Part shown: positions 21,852 through 55,446 of the stretch, piece after piece
How the letters are laid out: the number at the start of each line of letters is the position of its first letter
Position numbering within the stretch: the first letter of the stretch is position 1
NCBI RefSeq assembly: GCF_003991155.1
Contig: NZ_CP031293.1
Strand: one strand, 5' to 3'
DNA from: Escherichia coli
GTDB lineage: Bacteria; Pseudomonadota; Gammaproteobacteria; Enterobacterales; Enterobacteriaceae
DNA length: 64,000 nucleotides
Notes under the pieces: generated by a model
Database searches by the model: none
What the model was told of the DNA's origin: nothing
Seen by the model: the letters and a program-made list of their open reading frames with translations, nothing else
Position numbers and translations under genes: made by a program

Positions 21852-22398
21852 GACTCAATCATTTTTTGAACAAATAGATAATTTTTGCGCAATGGCAGTG
21901 AATACAGGAAAAATCGTTTTGAGCGATTTTATTTATCTTTGATATCGGCTTTATTAATTCATTCAATCAATATATTAGCACTGATTACAATTATACCTTT
22001 TTATTTTTCTGTGTCATGATGCCTCCGTTATTAGCCTTTTATCGTCTTGTTTATATTTTTTGGGCCGGCATGATGCCGGCTTTTTTTATGCCTTCATTAA
22101 TGTGCGCGTGATCACACCAGCCGTTTGGCGCAACAATCATTGATACCCCCCATGTTTCCGCTCAACTCATAACATATTGATATACATTTATAATTTTCAT
22201 GAATATTTATATTTAGAATTCATAATTCTGAATTATATCAAATAGATTAGAAACATTTTGAAATCTTTTAAATACATTTGTTACATGTAATCTTTAAAAT
22301 AAAATGAACTTCATAGAATAGTATCCAAATGTGCTTTTTTTTGGATAACGGCACTTATTGATATATTCATGAAGATTATAATCACAAGGGAATACATA

Positions 22399-23472
22399 AT
22401 GAAAAGAAAAGTTCTGGCAATGCTGGTCCCGGCGTTATTAGTTGCTGGCGCAGCAAATGCGGCTGAAATTTATAATAAAGATGGCAATAAAGTTGATTTC
22501 TACGGCAAGATGGTTGGCGAACGCATCTGGTCAAATACTGATGATAATAACAGCGAAAACGAAGATACCTCCTATGCTCGTTTCGGTGTTAAAGGTGAAA
22601 CCCAAATCACCAGCGAACTGACTGGTTTTGGTCAGTTTGAATACAACCTCGACGCCAGCAAGCCCGAAGGCTCTAATCAGGAAAAAACCCGTTTAACCTT
22701 CGCAGGTTTGAAATATAACGAGTTAGGATCTTTCGACTATGGTCGTAACTACGGTGTTGCTTATGATGCCGCAGCTTATACCGATATGTTAGTTGAATGG
22801 GGTGGTGATTCCTGGGCGTCCGCTGACAACTTCATGAACGGTCGTACCAACGGTGTTGCAACCTACCGTAACTCTGATTTCTTTGGTCTGGTTGATGGTC
22901 TGAATTTTGCTGTGCAATATCAAGGTAAGAACAGCAATCGTGGCGTTACTAAACAAAACGGTGATGGCTATGCGTTGTCTGTAGACTACAACATCGAAGG
23001 TTTTGGTTTTGTAGGTGCATATAGCAAATCTGATCGTACTAATGAACAAGCTGGTGACGGCTACGGTGATAACGCTGAAGTGTGGTCATTAGCAGCCAAG
23101 TATGATGCAAATAATATCTATGCAGCAATGATGTACGGTGAAACCCGCAACATGACCGTTTTGGCTAATGATCATTTTGCAAATAAAACCCAAAACTTTG
23201 AAGCTGTTGTACAGTATCAGTTCGACTTCGGTTTACGTCCGTCTTTAGGCTACGTATATTCCAAAGGCAAAGATCTTTATGCTCGTGATGGACATAAAGG
23301 TGTTGATGCTGACCGCGTAAATTATATCGAAGTTGGTACCTGGTACTACTTCAATAAGAACATGAACGTCTACACAGCATACAAATTTAACCTGCTGGAT
23401 AAAGACGATGCAGCGATTACCGATGCCGCAACTGATGACCAGTTTGCAGTTGGTATCGTCTACCAGTTCTAA
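22399..23472 (+). CDS. yedS: OmpC/OmpF-family general porin, intact YedS-type
   Basis: Signal peptide [21 protein letters not shown] then [15 protein letters not shown], typical porin beta-barrel sequence ending in F; lies between yedR and hchA. Confidence 0.85.
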
Positions 23473-41104: not shown

Positions 41105-41635
41105 TTAGTTAGCTTTCCAACCATTACTGGTCTTAACTAAATTCATGGCACTATCAGCAGGTTCATTCATCCCTTTAACGCTGGCGAAGGCTTTTTTGTC
41201 AATCCAGCCCGGAACGTCAACCAGCTTCCACGTATAAGTCACGCGAACTACTTTCTGATTACCGTTTCCCGGCTCAGTCCATTCCTTAATCTCGTCAACA
41301 GCACGACGACCAACACAGGCACCGTCTGTTGTGCTCCAGACTTTGGCTTTTTTGCCTTCCTCTGTTATCCCTAATACATTCGAATCATAACCCTGCTCAA
41401 AAACCATCAGGCCCTGCTCAATAAAACCATCGAGGATCACTGAATTCGTCCCTGTGCCAGTCGAATCAAGTCGTGGCTTGGCAAGACAGATGGGGAAGCT
41501 GGTGTTATTGTTATCCAGCGAGAAGCAGTATTTGTCTTGCCCAATCTTGGCATTAATCGCTTTCTCAAACTCACCTTTCTCACCACATCCCGCCAGTGTC
41601 AGAGTTGCGCCTACAACGAGTAAAATCTTCTTCAT
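41105..41635 (-). CDS. Lipoprotein (lipobox LAGC)
   Basis: MKKILLVVGATLTLAGC signal/lipobox; ORF 41105..41659 trimmed to Met9. Confidence 0.6.
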   Translation of the reverse strand: MKKILLVVGATLTLAGCGEKGEFEKAINAKIGQDKYCFSLDNNNTSFPICLAKPRLDSTGTGTNSVILDGFIEQGLMVFEQGYDSNVLGITEEGKKAKVWSTTDGACVGRRAVDEIKEWTEPGNGNQKVVRVTYTWKLVDVPGWIDKKAFASVKGMNEPADSAMNLVKTSNGWKAN

Positions 41636-42054
41636 CTGCTTATCCATCCTGATAATCAAAATTGCGTATGTTTTTTGACCTAATCCGGTCAGGGCTAGAG
41701 TTGTTGCGGGATCCGGCTGATATCACATGGCAAAATCACCGCTTAACCAATTGATAGGATTCAATTCTTTTTGAGGCTCGTCATATCGTTTAAAACGATC
41801 AAAAACAACCATATGATAGTTTTTAACTATCATAAATTGATATTCGATCGATTATAACAATTAATAACCGATCGATATCGCGATTTCAATCGTTATAATC
41901 TATCAATAACTCATTATCGATCTTTTATATCGATCATTATTTCAAGTTCTGATAGCCTTGCAACGCCGAGACCGACGCCATGAGTTTGGTGCAGTAGGAC
42001 GTATAAAACGAAGCAAAGCTCTGTGAGCGGGTTCAGTCTCTTTAACTCATTTAC

Positions 42055-42543
42055 ATGGAGGAAGTAAGAGTGGAAGCAACAAGTATCGTTTTTTTAGTGG
42101 TGCTCTTCGTCATTATCATGACCGCAGCAGTTATACAGAAGAAAAAGCACTACAACAGCTTTACGGAAGTTCTGGACGGCGACATTATTTCGTATGAATG
42201 CCAGCAGACAGGTATTGTAATTGATACTCAAAAACATACTGTCCGTATTTTCAATAAAGATAAAGACAGCACATATACTTTTGATGAAATCCGGGAAATA
42301 AATTATACGCTTTCAGAGGGTGGTAAGTTTTACGGCAATGGAACATTACGAGGTATGAATAATGCGGCTATTGCTAACTGGAGAGAACAACTTTCAGCGA
42401 ATAAACGGTCTGGCCTAAATATTTTAACCGATGATATTAAAAATCCCATGTGGAAAGTTAATGTTCCCCTGAAAAATAAAAGCACTTCAAATCACGAACT
42501 TTGTGAGCGATGGATGCTGGTATTTAAAAAGTATGTTTTCTGA
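42055..42543 (+). CDS. Hypothetical membrane-anchored protein (162 aa)
   Basis: N-terminal TM segment SIVFLVVLFVIIMTAAVI; RBS GGAGGAAG upstream. Confidence 0.55.
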   Translation: MEEVRVEATSIVFLVVLFVIIMTAAVIQKKKHYNSFTEVLDGDIISYECQQTGIVIDTQKHTVRIFNKDKDSTYTFDEIREINYTLSEGGKFYGNGTLRGMNNAAIANWREQLSANKRSGLNILTDDIKNPMWKVNVPLKNKSTSNHELCERWMLVFKKYVF

Positions 42544-42574: not shown

Positions 42575-42952
42575 ATGAAAAAATTATTACTTGCTATTTT
42601 TATCATATTACCACTTGGTGGCTGTACGGTTCATGGTAATAAATCCCTAACTGATGAAAATCATCAAACGGTTAAATTAAAAATCGTCAAGGGGAAAACT
42701 ACCCAACAAGAAATTCTTGCTGCCTTTGGAGAGCCTCAGACACGCGCTACGAATGATGGGCAGGAGATGTGGAACTACTCAAGTATGACGGGAGAAAGCC
42801 AACTATCTAACTACATACCGGGCCTTGCTCTATTGACCAATAGCAGCACGGCACACATTAAATCACTGGATATCTGGTTTAAGGGTGATGTTGTGGAACG
42901 TTATGATTTTCGTCAGACTGCAAGTAAGACATCTCGTGGCCTGCTTGATTAA
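42575..42952 (+). CDS. Small lipoprotein (about 125 aa)
   Basis: MKKLLLAIFIILPLGGC lipobox; ORF 42503..42952 trimmed. Confidence 0.6.
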   Translation: MKKLLLAIFIILPLGGCTVHGNKSLTDENHQTVKLKIVKGKTTQQEILAAFGEPQTRATNDGQEMWNYSSMTGESQLSNYIPGLALLTNSSTAHIKSLDIWFKGDVVERYDFRQTASKTSRGLLD

Positions 42953-43001: not shown

Positions 43002-43613
43002 CTATTTTTGTTTATATAAATCGTAGGAACTTAATTTTTTAGATTTCTCATAGGCATTTTCAATGTATAAAGATACATCTGCTAAAAATCGGTCTTCTTC
43101 TATCAATGAAATATAAGAACCAGTCAATTGATCATATGATTTGCACTCAGGGCAACAATATTTATCTTCTGAAGTTAAATTAAACCTATTATTATTAATA
43201 ATGTCATATAGTTCAGTTGTGTCAATAGTTCTTGATGAACATCCATCAGGCTTGATTGAAGAAGATACTAACCAGTCATAGCTATTATTAACCTTCATTA
43301 TCACACCAACAATGCCATTAGTTCGGGAAGTGGTTCCTCCTCTCTTGTATTCTTTCAATGCATATTCAATTTCCCAGTCAATCCATTTACTTTTAATCAT
43401 ATTCGGGGAAATAATAACGATTAAAACAGATGTCCCGAAAATCATATTTTTAAGATTGTTCTTTATATTATCTACTGTTGTATTACTTATATCAGGAGAC
43501 TCCGATGTTTCCCCTTTATAGTAAACAGCATCATCACCTAATGCCTTGACAATTTTGTCTCTTAAATCCTGTGCTTCACTATATTTATATGATATGAATG
43601 TTTCATGAGCCAT
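43002..43613 (-). CDS. thsB: Thoeris ThsB, TIR-domain protein (203 aa)
   Basis: N-terminal FISYKYSEA... TIR-like beginning, about 200 aa, immediately downstream of SIR2-SLOG gene. Confidence 0.75.
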   Translation of the reverse strand: MAHETFISYKYSEAQDLRDKIVKALGDDAVYYKGETSESPDISNTTVDNIKNNLKNMIFGTSVLIVIISPNMIKSKWIDWEIEYALKEYKRGGTTSRTNGIVGVIMKVNNSYDWLVSSSIKPDGCSSRTIDTTELYDIINNNRFNLTSEDKYCCPECKSYDQLTGSYISLIEEDRFLADVSLYIENAYEKSKKLSSYDLYKQK

Positions 43614-43629
43614 AACTTCACCTAATATA

Positions 43630-45066
43630 TTATTTATTCAGTTTGTTTATGATTTTTATTACAACTTCTATTGTTTTTTTTACCGAAAAATCTTTTTCAG
43701 TAAGCTCAGACAAATCATTATATATCCATTCATTACTTCCATAATATTTCTTAGGATCTTGTGATATTTGTTCAAATATATATTTAGACATATACCCGGT
43801 ATTGGGTAAAGGAATTGGTACAAGGCCATGTTGAACAGCAATCTCAAACTCTCTAAATACTCCCCTAGCATTTACTATATCATTATTTTCCTCTTGTTTA
43901 TTTCCAAAAATAAACAATGCAATACCACCAAGAGGAATCATTCTCTGTCTATACTCCTCCCAAAGTTCTTGAATATCTTTCCCCTTACTGACAGTTTGTG
44001 GAAATGGTCTAACAATGAGCTGTTCTTCTGATAATTTATCTGGCCTACTATAAATTGCATCCAACGCACCATTTATCACAGAACTTCCGACGCCCCATCC
44101 AAATCCATTCACTATCCTATAATTATTCTTTATAATCTCATATGCTAATGTGTGAATAAAATCTAATGCTTTAGGTCTTTCAAGATCCCCATATTTTTCT
44201 GCACTACCAGAAATAAATATCGTTTTCTTTTTAAATGATTGCTCTATCTTAGCTAGAATTTTAGGGATGTCAGAATATTCATCTATTAATAATACTTGTA
44301 TACCAAATCTCTTGAGATCATCGATTCGCAGTTTTTGTTTTCTGATCTTATAATTTACTGTTTCTTCATCATCTAGGGAATTATTAGCCTCATTCTTCAT
44401 AAAGCAATAGTGTGTCCTCTTGTCCCCAGAATGAGTATACAAACGACTCAAAATGTAATCCAGATTTGGGTCGGTAAAACTAAACCCTATGAATAGAAAG
44501 GTTTTTGATATTAAATCTCCGCTAAGTGCGGTGATAAATGAAGCGTGTGTTCTGTAGTATTTTTCATACTGCTCTTTATATAAAATAGCCTTGGATGGGG
44601 ACGAAATATCACCATGCATTTTATATACTATCGCGTCTCGCTTAGGTCGTGTTGTATTTAAATCATCTATGTTTCTTTTTACATCTGCAATTTTGTAAAC
44701 TTTCCGCAGACTATCTTCAATTAAAGTGTCATAGTTTGTTGTCCAAAATGTCTTAATCGGTAAACGAGCAATTATATTATGAACCTCTGATGGCTCGGCT
44801 TGCTCAGAAAACTCTTCGATTATCTTCCTTGTGAGTTTTGTAGCCCCTTTCTTTTCATTAACATGAAATTGAGCAAGCGATATTAGATCGTCTTCTTTAT
44901 TAATGTCTAAACTAAGCTCTTCTGCTATATCGCTAAGTAATTCTTTCCAATCAACATAACCTTGACTTTTAGACATTCCTGCGCCAGAAAAAATAGCAGC
45001 ACAATCATTTTCAAGATCTTTAACAAAATCTTTTATGAAAACTTCAATTTCATTACTAAACGTCAT
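43630..45066 (-). CDS. thsA: Thoeris ThsA, SIR2-SLOG NADase effector (478 aa)
   Basis: N-terminal SIR2-like motifs (FSGAGMS, TTNYD, MHGD) and C-terminal SLOG-like glycine-rich region (FISGSAEKYG...GFGWGVGSSVINGALD); start set at MTFSNEIEV with GGAG RBS. Confidence 0.8.
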   Translation of the reverse strand: MTFSNEIEVFIKDFVKDLENDCAAIFSGAGMSKSQGYVDWKELLSDIAEELSLDINKEDDLISLAQFHVNEKKGATKLTRKIIEEFSEQAEPSEVHNIIARLPIKTFWTTNYDTLIEDSLRKVYKIADVKRNIDDLNTTRPKRDAIVYKMHGDISSPSKAILYKEQYEKYYRTHASFITALSGDLISKTFLFIGFSFTDPNLDYILSRLYTHSGDKRTHYCFMKNEANNSLDDEETVNYKIRKQKLRIDDLKRFGIQVLLIDEYSDIPKILAKIEQSFKKKTIFISGSAEKYGDLERPKALDFIHTLAYEIIKNNYRIVNGFGWGVGSSVINGALDAIYSRPDKLSEEQLIVRPFPQTVSKGKDIQELWEEYRQRMIPLGGIALFIFGNKQEENNDIVNARGVFREFEIAVQHGLVPIPLPNTGYMSKYIFEQISQDPKKYYGSNEWIYNDLSELTEKDFSVKKTIEVVIKIINKLNK

Positions 45067-47108: not shown

Positions 47109-48022
47109 TGTGTTTGTCCTTTTTTATTTATTACTGGTTAATACTCTATCGCAAGTGTAAAAATCAAATATATTTTCATTTATTAATGATTTTACTTCTT
47201 ATTATTAAACTTCTTTTTGAAAAGATTTTTATCTCTGTGCTTATGCACGGCTACGCCCTAAAACTGACATTTTGTATTTTATTTTACTACTATGAGGTAA
47301 TAAGTGAATGTATTCGATCATAGTCAGATCTATTTTCCTTTTAACTTTTAATTCGGTTCCTATGTTTGAACATAGCATTCCTCCTCTGACATATAGCATT
47401 TGCTCTTAAATGTATAGGAAAACTATATCTTTAGTAGCAGCACTTCGTGATTGTTGCCAACAATCACTTTGCTGAACAGGGCTTGTCCCTGTTAATTATG
47501 GATTTATCCAAAAAAAGATCGCGTCGAAGACGCATATAAAGTAAAAGGAAAATTAATTAAGCTCTCACAGTAAATGCAGCGGTTCGTGATTGTATGCAAC
47601 AATCACTTCGCTGTAATAACATAGTAAGGAAGATAAAGTTCAATAACGTTAGTAGGTGCCATTTATATAAGACACCAATCAACTAAAAAGAAGAACTGTT
47701 TTCTATATTTCATCCTTTTAAACGTCATCCAAAGCTTCGCTATTTGAATAATGAAGAAGAAAAATGCTCTCAAGCCAGTTATAGCTTAAAACAAAGTACG
47801 CACTCTCGGGAGTTAAAGTCCCGAATCCCGGTACTTAAGATGATAATCATTATCAATAATAAAAAATAATACAGCTCCTATTTTTACTTATTTCAGAACT
47901 TGAAGTTTTTAATAACCAAACTTCAAGTATTATTATTTTTATAAAAACTGCACTTAAAATATTGACTAACTAAAAATAGTACGTTATCTACTTTATATAA
48001 AAAGAATAAAGGGGAAAGTATT

Positions 48023-52860: not shown

Positions 52861-52950
52861 TGGCGGAGAGAGGGGGATTTGAACCCCCGGTAGAGTTGCC
52901 CCTACTCCGGTTTTCGAGACCGGTCCGTTCAGCCGCTCCGGCATCTCTCC
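52861..52950 (-). tRNA. serU: tRNA-Ser (anticodon CGA)
   Basis: Reverse complement GGAGAGATGCCGGAGCGGCTGAACGGACCGGTCTCGAAAACCGG...GGTTCAAATCCCCCTCTCTCCGCCA has long variable arm and CGA anticodon. Confidence 0.92.
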
Positions 52951-54017: not shown

Positions 54018-54183
54018 AATTTTAGTCTTGAGACATCTCTATAAGTCTCAGGATAGTTAAAAAACAAGAACTTATCTTTACCCGGTTGTCTCGCAAGAGG
54101 CTGCTGGGTTTCTTGACATCCATAGTTTTTAGGGGCCTAATCAGGGGCCTCACGGTTCGGTGAGCAAACGGAGCCCCCACGCT

Positions 54184-55446
54184 ATGGCATTAACAGACAC
54201 CGCTATTCGCAAGACTAAACCCTCTGACAAACCCTTCAAAATGACGGACAGTTCTGGACTGTACCTGTTGATCAAACCTAACGGCTCAAAACTCTGGTAT
54301 ATGAAGTACCGCATCGACGGCAAAGAGAAGAAACTGGCCTTTGGCCCCTACCCGGAGATCTCCCTGTTGCAGGCTCGCCGCCTGCGCGAAACAGCACGCA
54401 ATAACATTCATGCAGGCGTCGATCCGGCTGCGGTGAAGCAAACCGAGAAACAGAAGAGGAAAAACGGGCAGACGTTCAGCCAGATCGCCATCAACTGGCA
54501 TAGCGAGCATAAACGCTGGTCTGAGCATTACGCGAAAACGGTTATGCGCAGGCTGGAAATGTACGTTTTCCCGGATATCGGGGATCGCCTTATCGAGGAG
54601 ATCGAAACGGAGGATTTGTTATTCACGTTGCGCAAGGTAGAGAGTAAAGGCTTTCTGGAAATCACCGCGCGGCTGAAAAACTACGTCACCGATATCATGC
54701 ACTACGCGATGAAAAAGAAACTGCTCAAAGCGAACCCGGCGCTGTATCTGGACGGTGAGTTTGCCGCGCCAGAAACCAGTCACTACCCGGCCCTGTCGCT
54801 GGATAAGTTGCCTGAGCTTTTATCCCGGACAGAGAATTACTGCGGCAGGCTGCTGACGAAATACGCCCTCAAACTTTCGCTGCTGTTTTTCGTGCGCTCC
54901 AGCGAGCTACGTTTTGCCCGCTGGAGTGAAATCGACTGGCAGCAAAAACTGTGGGTGATCCCGGAAGAACGCGAGCAGATCGAAAACGTGCGCTTCTCTT
55001 ACCGGGGGGCGAAAATGAAAATCCAGCACATTGTGCCGCTGTCGGATCAGGCGATTGCGATACTGAAGCAGATCGAGGCCCTCTCCGGGCATCTGGCCTT
55101 TATTTTTCCCGGCGAATACGACCAGAACAAGTGCATGAGCGACAACACCGTCAACAAGGCGCTGCGCGTGATGGGTTACGACACCAAAAAGGATATCTGC
55201 GGGCATGGCTTCCGGGCAATGGCCTGTAGTGCGCTGAGCGAATCGGGATTATGGAGCAAAGAAGCCATTGAAAAGCAGATGAGCCACCAGGAAAGAAACA
55301 GCGTCCGTGCTGCCTATATTCACAAGGCTGAATATCTGGAGGAACGGATCGAGATGATGCAGTGGTGGTCAGATTATCTTGATGCAAACAGTGACGGGTA
55401 TGTCTCGGCTTACCAGTATGCCCGCCGCCTAAAACAGGCGTCGTAA
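54184..55446 (+). CDS. P4-like tyrosine integrase of asnT-associated island
   Basis: MALTDTAIRKTKPSDKPFKMTDSSGLYLLIKPNGSKLWYMKYR N-terminus typical of P4-family integrases; directly downstream of the tRNA 3' end. Confidence 0.9.
   Translation: MALTDTAIRKTKPSDKPFKMTDSSGLYLLIKPNGSKLWYMKYRIDGKEKKLAFGPYPEISLLQARRLRETARNNIHAGVDPAAVKQTEKQKRKNGQTFSQIAINWHSEHKRWSEHYAKTVMRRLEMYVFPDIGDRLIEEIETEDLLFTLRKVESKGFLEITARLKNYVTDIMHYAMKKKLLKANPALYLDGEFAAPETSHYPALSLDKLPELLSRTENYCGRLLTKYALKLSLLFFVRSSELRFARWSEIDWQQKLWVIPEEREQIENVRFSYRGAKMKIQHIVPLSDQAIAILKQIEALSGHLAFIFPGEYDQNKCMSDNTVNKALRVMGYDTKKDICGHGFRAMACSALSESGLWSKEAIEKQMSHQERNSVRAAYIHKAEYLEERIEMMQWWSDYLDANSDGYVSAYQYARRLKQAS

Follow-up and report, generated by a model that had tools for sequence, protein, structure and literature searches.

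A phased array of OxyR-type half-sites and GATC sites in a serU-integrated island of Escherichia coli as a probable epigenetic switch

We analysed a stretch of 64,000 nucleotides from an Escherichia coli chromosome (NCBI RefSeq assembly GCF_003991155.1, contig NZ_CP031293.1), hereafter the window, and focused on an intergenic region of 395 bp and 28% G+C that holds a phased array of dyad sites interspersed with GATC sites, most probably a switch governed by Dam methylation and the host regulator OxyR. The region separates divergent genes for envelope proteins, as follows (positions count from the first base of the window):

41105-41635, minus strand: lipoprotein gene, 176 aa with a lipobox, the constant leftward neighbour of the array
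42070-42543, plus strand: gene for a DUF4755 membrane protein, the first rightward gene
42575-42952, plus strand: lipoprotein gene, 125 aa (phrog_3135), the second rightward gene

An earlier inspection of the bare letters (the sequence-only reading) had placed the region upstream of a membrane-protein gene, and the plus-strand gene at 42070-42543 indeed encodes a DUF4755 protein with an N-terminal hydrophobic helix. For these flanking envelope proteins, Pfam, NCBIfam, PHROGs and PADLOC returned only matches at the level of the lipobox or to families of unknown function.

Five GATC sites start within 136 bp, at 41797, 41846, 41870, 41919 and 41932 (GATC1 to GATC5; cluster 41797-41935), and a sixth, at 41710, lies outside the array. 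This is the densest GATC cluster in the window and its only stretch with five GATC per 140 bp; from the window-wide density, 0.5 GATC per 140 bp would be expected (Poisson P ~1.7e-4), with ~0.08 such stretches overall. Within the segment 41740-41950 (211 bp, local G+C content of 28%), the five observed sites likewise compare with 0.5 expected, and five were reached in 456 of 20,000 dinucleotide-preserving shuffles of that segment, a harsh control in that the AT, TC, CG and GA dinucleotides composing the motif are retained. The region also contains the palindrome ATCGTTTAAAACGAT at 41785-41799, with 7-bp arms and a single unpaired central base, and the palindrome GATAGTTTTTAACTATC at 41815-41831, with 7-bp arms around a 3-nt centre that reach 9 bp as ATGATAGTT/AACTATCAT. 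The sequence-only reading had reported a GATC-dense cluster with these two palindromes, and direct inspection of the sequence together with the density statistics bears this out; both palindromes are present, with the sole correction that ATCGTTTAAAACGAT starts 5 bp before the start given for the cluster.

The repeat unit, by contrast, is not the (T)ATCGATC string proposed in that reading. ATCGAT occurs four times (41847, 41871, 41916 and 41929), but these strings result from the overlap of GATC with the ATCG/CGAT ends of weaker half-sites belonging to a different unit, a 15-bp dyad that a repeat finder located at 41785, 41816, 41847, 41889 and 41920, with start-to-start distances of 31, 31, 42 and 31 bp. 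The dyad can be written as ATMGnTnnnAnCKAT, that is, ATMG-N7-CKAT with T at position 6 and A at position 10. At the level of the motif, this unit is the consensus for one OxyR dimer, ATAGnTnnnAnCTAT; the same consensus, together with the ~31-32-bp spacing of the reduced-OxyR binding mode, served as the criteria in the studies of gtr and opvAB (PMC2909390, PMC4856963). The OxyR half-site motif, which was absent from the sequence-only reading, is the key to the region. A weak sixth site in phase at 41754 brings the spacing to 31, 31, 31, 42 and 31 bp, multiples of the helical turn on one face of the helix. Scored over the ten specified positions, the six predicted half-sites reach, from left to right, 7, 8, 10, 8, 9 and 7 out of 10. 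The elements of the array, none of them assigned to a strand, are:

41743-41772: conserved left block TTAACCAATTGATAGGATTCAATT(A/C)TTTTT, with conservation of 90% or more in most columns of the 28 non-redundant arrays compared
41754-41768: half-site L0, ATAGGATTCAATTCT, weak at 7/10, inside the left block and 31 bp from site A
41785-41799: half-site A, ATCGTTTAAAACGAT, 8/10, with GATC1 (41797-41800) over its right end; consensus positions 100% conserved
41816-41830: half-site B, ATAGTTTTTAACTAT, 10/10, without GATC; counterpart of OBS_A of opvAB
41847-41861: half-site C, ATCGATTATAACAAT, 8/10, overlapped by GATC2 (41846-41849); counterpart of OBS_B/GATC2 of opvAB
41870-41873: GATC3, between C and D, 19 bp upstream of D; counterpart of GATC3 of opvAB
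41889-41903: half-site D, ATCGTTATAATCTAT, 9/10, without GATC; counterpart of OBS_C of opvAB
41920-41934: half-site E, ATCTTTTATATCGAT, 7/10, with GATC4 (41919-41922) and GATC5 (41932-41935) 13 bp apart; counterpart of OBS_D/GATC4 of opvAB

It is thus the weaker sites that carry GATC (GATC1 in A, GATC2 in C and GATC4/5 in E), which is the layout of the known switch family. Scanning the whole window with ATAGnTnnnAnCTAT yielded a single 10/10 match, at 41816, and two 9/10 matches, including that at 41889. Thirty sites in the window score at least 8/10, four of them in the array and in phase, and four such sites within 211 bp were reached in only 10 of 20,000 dinucleotide shuffles.

Elsewhere in the window, two overlapping pairs of OxyR-like half-sites (7-8/10, spaced by 32-33 bp, with no GATC cluster) occur at 22190-22256, in an intergenic region upstream of an open reading frame (ORF) at 22369-23472; they may be due to chance or form an ordinary operator of OxyR or another LysR-type protein. 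Compared with the dyads by eye, none of the consensuses of Lrp, Fur, FNR, TrpR, PurR and DnaA fits. FNR-type sites follow the dyad consensus TTGAT-N4-ATCAA, and a separate element in the left block, TTGAT-AGGA-TTCAA at 41751-41764, agrees with it at 9 of 10 positions; kept in most island arrays, it might bring in regulation by anaerobiosis or by a CRP-family protein, or simply belong to a promoter.

A sensitive BLAST search with the intergenic region among plasmid-labelled records gave matches in Yersinia, Klebsiella, Morganella and Salmonella that were confined to the non-coding array. The Salmonella match was obtained free of any hypothesis and covers positions 41792-41905 of the window with 74% identity over 114 bp (E 4e-8). 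The matched locus lies between yeiP/yeiW and setB and is followed immediately by a 40-aa ORF (OpvA), with a -35 element GTGAAT and a -10 element TAAAAT. The published promoter region of opvAB (STM2209-STM2208) has exactly these features (PMC3350482), which identifies the match as the opvAB control region. In a global alignment, 102 of 148 positions are identical between the window and opvAB, a score reached by none of 1,000 shuffles. The opvAB region contains four OxyR half-sites, OBS A-D, centred at -148, -116, -75 and -43, together with GATC1-4; it is bound by OxyR in electrophoretic mobility shift assays and footprinting, has methylation patterns that depend on OxyR and are opposite in OFF and ON lineages, and involves SeqA and HU as ancillary factors (PMC4856963). 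The opvAB cassette is also reported to be bistable in E. coli (PMC6677893), so that the host factors would suffice.

The correspondence between the two regions extends to the strength and geometry of the sites: half-sites B-E of the window score 10, 8, 9 and 7 against 10, 8, 10 and 7 in opvAB, their spacing is 31/42/31 bp against 32/41/32 bp, and GATC1-4 are spaced by 49/24/49 bp against 50/23/50 bp. The window differs in the addition of the in-phase sites A and L0 on the left, of a fifth GATC and of the conserved block with a candidate divergent promoter, and its site E is centred at ~-38 from the predicted rightward promoter rather than at -43. Moreover, only the control region is common to both, the controlled genes being different, and no OpvA or OpvB homologues were found adjoining the array of the window or other arrays. 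Finally, the array of the window belongs to a mobile island and is found in many genera; opvAB, by contrast, has been described as restricted to Salmonella enterica, and a 2026 study states that other enteric bacteria lack the operon.

The array also resembles the control region of the gtr operon (O-antigen glucosylation) of phage P22 and Salmonella. Sites A, B and C (8, 10 and 8 out of 10) form a triad in which a strong central site without GATC is flanked by weaker, GATC-bearing sites ~31-32 bp away; site E, like the gtr half-site OxyR(C) that overlaps the -35 element, carries two GATC sites 13 bp apart; and an extended -10 element follows the last GATC in the same register (TGnTACACT in gtr, TGATAGCCT in the window). 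In gtr, this element lies 18-26 nt past the last GATC, and the transcription start site (TSS) is 33 bp past GATC4 (PMC2909390). BLAST detected no similarity between the array of the window and gtr, and the two differ in that gtr has three sites and four GATC arranged in two pairs, as opposed to five to six sites and a GATC pair at E only. From the promoter-proximal pair to the next site upstream, the distance is 42 bp in the window and 32 bp in gtr.

Similarity to agn43 of E. coli K-12 (flu) is concentrated at site E, where the operator core TTATCGATCGTTTATATCGATCGAT of agn43 is close to TTATCGATCTTTTATATCGATCATT of the window (near-identical as TTATCGATC-N-TTTATATCGATC), and both systems have GATC inside OxyR half-sites ~32 bp apart. 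The agn43 operator is a single OxyR site with three GATC downstream of the transcription start, where OxyR is known to act purely as a repressor; the array of the window is much longer and lies between divergent genes. With Dam/Lrp fimbrial switches of the pap type, the window shares the phasing of regulator sites at ~3 turns, the location of GATC inside the sites, divergent flanking genes and an epigenetic ON/OFF logic. The Lrp consensus, YAG-N9-CTR, has a 9-bp spacer, in contrast to the 7-bp spacer of the half-sites described here, and no papI/papB-like genes are present. The proposal of the sequence-only reading that this might be a Dam-regulated phase-variable promoter is therefore supported, at the sequence level only, by homology and by an architecture that matches opvAB, gtr and agn43.

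To define the spread of the array, the pattern CGATC-N15/16-ATAG-N7-CTAT-N15/16-GATCG was searched in one genome per bacterial species. This triad occurs at at least 120 loci, often several per genome; by our assignment, all but two of the 80 listed titles belong to Enterobacterales or Orbales, bacteria that we take to be Dam+ and OxyR+. E. coli itself has both Dam and OxyR. We then compared 33 instances, comprising BLAST relatives, pattern matches, the window and the Salmonella opvAB locus. All 33 share the pattern of sites with invariant spacing, site A being degenerate at opvAB. Among 28 non-redundant arrays from ~20 genera, conservation is 93-100% at the ten consensus positions of each site and 52-77% at the five free positions. 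GATC3 is present in 28 of the 28 arrays, GATC4 in 27 and GATC5 in 22, none of which was part of the search pattern. Complementarity between the dyad arms is confined to the consensus positions and involves a single pair type, with no compensatory changes, which points to the binding site of a protein dimer and not to a selected hairpin.

The at least 120 triad loci outside the mobile islands that carry the array (L011-L130; Enterobacterales/Orbales) look like uncharacterised candidate Dam/OxyR switches. Their neighbours include genes for small HTH_3 regulators (16 loci), acs (8 loci), and genes for LuxR-type regulators, PapD-like fimbrial chaperones, unknown membrane proteins and a 1260-aa protein with an N-terminal signal-like sequence. 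One of these loci, on a 3.4-kb contig (SAAR01000351.1) of a metagenome-assembled genome labelled Erysipelotrichia (Firmicutes), carries a full five-site array of the enterobacterial type and is probably mis-binned.

The array is embedded in an island of ~22 kb between zinT and tRNA-Ser (serU), with 38% G+C compared to 50% in the flank. A 14-bp direct repeat, TGGCGGAGAGAGGG, at 30925 and 52861 marks the island limits (30925-52874), and its right copy overlaps the 3' end of the tRNA gene. Genes next to the limits are:

31103-32323: integrase gene
52864-52950, minus strand: tRNA-Ser

A second integrase gene, at 54160-55446 after a tRNA-Asn, indicates that another island begins there. In the RefSeq annotation of an identical island, the genes encode a tyrosine integrase, PilV, a type IV pilin, a TraD-like protein, a MobQ relaxase, RepL, two H-NS-family proteins and an AlpA-type regulator. 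The hallmarks of EARL (ROD21-like) islands are a P4-like integrase at a tRNA, direct repeats, an AlpA-type recombination directionality factor, a MobA/MobQ relaxase, a TraD-like protein, a pilin with PilV and one or more H-NS homologues (PMC6035254). The island of the window has all of these, with integration at serU instead of the usual tRNA-Asn, and its gene set is also that of the serU island of uropathogenic E. coli, to whose Hfp its H-NS homologue corresponds; the PIME family, described in a preprint, is another island family and is not relevant here. Many strains carry the array in identical form, and 684 of 5426 complete E. coli genomes have a detectable copy, in the chromosome every time.

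Synteny ties the array to its left side. In every island context, the array directly precedes a leftward operon encoding one or two lipoproteins; a 91-aa membrane protein with clustered cysteines comes next in most cases, and the first leftward start codon is 112-183 bp to the left of site B. The same holds for a second island type with another relaxase and no RepL (L008, L126). The right side varies: it may consist of the DUF4755 gene and/or the 125-aa lipoprotein gene on the plus strand, as in the window, of a convergent 110-aa gene, then a non-coding stretch of ~900 bp and repL, or of nothing annotated before repL. Similarity between island lineages ends within a few bases past site E, and the array therefore appears to mark the edge of a cargo slot, which in the window is filled by the DUF4755 and lipoprotein genes, a type I Thoeris system and two unknown genes. 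The Thoeris system, directed against phages, is complete (minus strand, 43002-45066, with ThsB (TIR) at 43002-43613 and ThsA (SIR2-SLOG/STALD) at 43630-45066) and lies in this slot, which directly adjoins the array on its right, convergent with the DUF4755-lipoprotein pair. In relatives, TIR cargo occupies a second slot by mobQ, with tcpC, a TIR gene and a macro-domain gene in ATCC 25922, and a TPR and TIR gene in M9682-C1.

Further along the island, a 38-nt unit is present twice (47437-47474 and 47576-47613) in a ~1.2-kb non-coding region upstream of repL. Each copy contains a strong hairpin, GTGATTGT-N5-ACAATCAC (z = -5.3 when folded as single-stranded DNA), and a similar sequence occurs upstream of mobQ in Klebsiella and E. 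coli relatives; these units are candidates for the transfer origin (oriT) of the island, a single-strand initiation site or a replication origin. For ROD21, deletion of the RepL-like gene SEN1990 changed the expression of a single gene outside the island, oafB, which is part of a gtr operon (PMC10655114). That operon is itself a Dam/OxyR phase-variable locus, and the effect could be a clonal ON/OFF artefact or reflect cross-talk, for example, by titration of OxyR by a multi-site array.

Taken together, motif identity, phasing, homology, the pattern of conservation and synteny lead us to consider, with a probability of roughly three in four, that the region is a methylation-dependent, OxyR-operated epigenetic switch of the agn43/gtr/opvAB family, located in the backbone of a ROD21-like (EARL-type), serU-integrated mobilizable island. 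The flanking genes, which encode lipoproteins and membrane proteins, are typical targets of phase variation. For the locus itself, OxyR binding, methylation patterns, promoter positions, direction and bistability are inferred by analogy. The candidate promoters are:

41930-41965, plus strand: predicted rightward promoter, with -35 TCGATC at 41930-41935, extended -10 TGATAGCCT at 41950-41958 and TSS at ~41965
41749-41784, minus strand: predicted leftward promoter, with -35 ATGACG (reverse complement of 41779-41784), a 17-nt spacer, -10 AATCCT (reverse complement of 41756-41761) and TSS at ~41749
41872-41899, plus strand: alternative promoter-like site TCGATA-16-TATAAT inside the array, 10 of 12 matches

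The rightward promoter, with a position weight matrix (PWM) score of 6.3, was found independently in the window and in ATCC 25922; its -10 hexamer is at 41953-41958, and its TSS is predicted at ~41965 because TGATAGCCT, a TGnTAnnnT element, follows GATC5 in the register of P22 gtr. On the left, CGTCAT (41779-41784) abuts site A, and both this hexamer and the gap-free 17-nt spacing are kept in all island arrays. The leftward promoter may, tentatively, mirror the promoter-proximal half of opvAB, with A at -43 (as OBS_D), GATC1 at its distal end and the strong site B 31 bp behind. In most relatives, the site at 41872-41899 has not been conserved, and it could be a feature of this lineage or due to chance.

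Under the proposed mechanism, OxyR, a LysR-type protein of the host, would bind as a dimer of dimers, in the extended mode of its reduced form, to pairs of 15-bp half-sites ~31 bp apart. Dam methylation of GATC would bar OxyR from the weak sites A, C and E, and bound OxyR would in turn bar Dam, resulting in two or more mutually exclusive, heritable patterns of occupancy and methylation that could be switched after replication. By analogy with gtr, the rightward promoter would be OFF when OxyR occupies D and E, overlapping the -35 element and leaving GATC4/5 unmethylated, and ON when GATC4/5 are methylated and OxyR is displaced to the upstream sites, the output being expression of the DUF4755 and 125-aa lipoprotein genes. 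The leftward direction would be a mirror image, with A abutting the conserved -35-like hexamer, then the strong site B at a distance of 31 bp and, further on, GATC2. Since the leftward lipoprotein operon is the partner of the array in every context, the switch is probably bidirectional; this operon would be its conserved target, and the genes at the start of the cargo slot would be controlled in addition.

Several observations weigh against this interpretation or complicate it. Because the search pattern demanded GATC1, GATC2 and site B, their conservation in 28 of 28 arrays is partly a matter of ascertainment; all three also occur, however, in each of the eight relatives found by BLAST alone. 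The 42-bp gap between C and D is unlike a simple toggle between AB and BC of the gtr type. The promoters are placed by prediction in AT-rich DNA, the leftward one falls below the PWM threshold, and the scan revealed no positionally conserved promoter on the minus strand. The rightward promoter varies by lineage, being TTGCTA-17-TARAGT in many relatives and TGATAGCCT in the window, and the logic of activation and repression may consequently differ between lineages; plus-strand promoter-like sites common to many relatives are this TTGCTA-17-TARAGT, seven bases past site E, and TTAACC-17-TATTTT in the left block. Finally, in cargo-free islands the array has no protein gene in the proper orientation on its right.

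Three other explanations can be envisioned. The one that survives best, albeit distinctly unlikely, is that the array serves as operator for another dimeric regulator (the AlpA-like helix-turn-helix protein, the H-NS paralogues or the RepL-like winged helix-turn-helix protein of the island, or a protein of a helper plasmid), the likeness to OxyR sites and the GATC being incidental. Dyads of the form T-N11-A are common to many LysR-type regulators, several DNA-binding proteins are encoded on the island, and site A and the left block are conserved past the OxyR consensus positions, suggesting extra constraints. However, the island has no LysR-type gene, and the array recurs in islands of differing gene content, such as L008, which lacks RepL and H-NS genes. 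The same array works with the OxyR of the host at opvAB, with no island proteins there; site B matches the OxyR-specific consensus at 10 of 10 positions; and GATC3, which lies outside the half-sites, is nevertheless conserved in 28 of 28 arrays, arguing for selection on GATC itself. Given the proven opvAB homologue, another regulator is less economical than OxyR.

Less probable still is a vegetative replication origin for RepL, with iterons and a methylation-controlled AT-rich region as in P1 oriR or oriC, or a centromere-like partition site, which the sequence-only reading had raised in the form of replication or partition iterons. Low G+C content (28%), clustered GATC and helically phased repeats would suit such a function, as would the position of the array 1.3-1.6 kb upstream of repL in cargo-free relatives and the ancillary role of SeqA at opvAB. 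The repeats are nevertheless dyads at 31 and 42 bp, whereas iterons are direct repeats of ~17-22 bp at a spacing of ~22 bp, and 41600-42100 contains no DnaA box with up to one mismatch. Islands that lack RepL (L008, L126) have the array as well, as does the chromosomal opvAB locus, and in many islands 3-7 kb of cargo separates the array from repL, while it is never parted from the lipoprotein operon. Neither parA, parB nor parR genes are annotated in the island, nor partition genes in related islands. The idea of iterons thus finds no backing in the structure and distribution of the array.

The least probable explanation, that the palindromes act as single-stranded hairpins (as oriT, as single-strand initiation site or in a structured RNA leader), might draw on the mobilizable nature of the island, with its MobQ relaxase, and on a single-stranded DNA fold of the region that beats shuffles (z = -4.8). 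However, pairing at the inner stem positions is seen in only 5-15 of 28 sequences and without compensatory pair types, folding as RNA gives no significant result (z = -1.7), Rfam has no match in 30000-54000 except for tRNAs, the array occurs with unrelated relaxases and at opvAB, and better oriT-like hairpins are found at 47437-47613.

Returning to the Dam/OxyR switch, we found no report in the literature of the array or of Dam/OxyR control in ROD21, EARL or serU islands. Judged by its sequence, the array is apparently an unreported member of the Dam/OxyR phase-variation switch family, and the features that make it a variant are its five to six predicted half-sites, five GATC, divergent genes and location in the backbone of a mobile element. 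A much broader scenario, speculative and rather unlikely as a whole, would see in it a bidirectional toggle built into the backbone of the entire island family. In cargo-free islands, its rightward promoter would then lead across ~1 kb of non-coding DNA, which contains paired hairpins, to repL, and methylation memory could set in each cell both the display of envelope proteins and the competence of the island for replication or transfer; the opvAB switch would be a one-sided remnant captured from such an array, and the at least 120 triads would represent a large, unexplored Dam/OxyR regulon in Enterobacterales.

The characterised Dam/OxyR switches are a handful (agn43, gtr and opvAB). Our analysis implies that an island family found in ~13% of complete E. 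coli genomes (among them ATCC 25922 and Nissle 1917) and in many other Enterobacterales has, as a fixed part of its backbone, a more elaborate switch homologous to that of opvAB. It also provides a search signature for candidate epigenetic switches, namely GATC, a weak dyad, 31 bp, a perfect dyad, 31 bp, a weak dyad and GATC. The origin of the opvAB control region would be traceable to such islands, and the island-encoded envelope proteins next to slots for defence and virulence cargo (Thoeris in the window, tcpC in ATCC 25922) may be expressed by a subpopulation of cells only.

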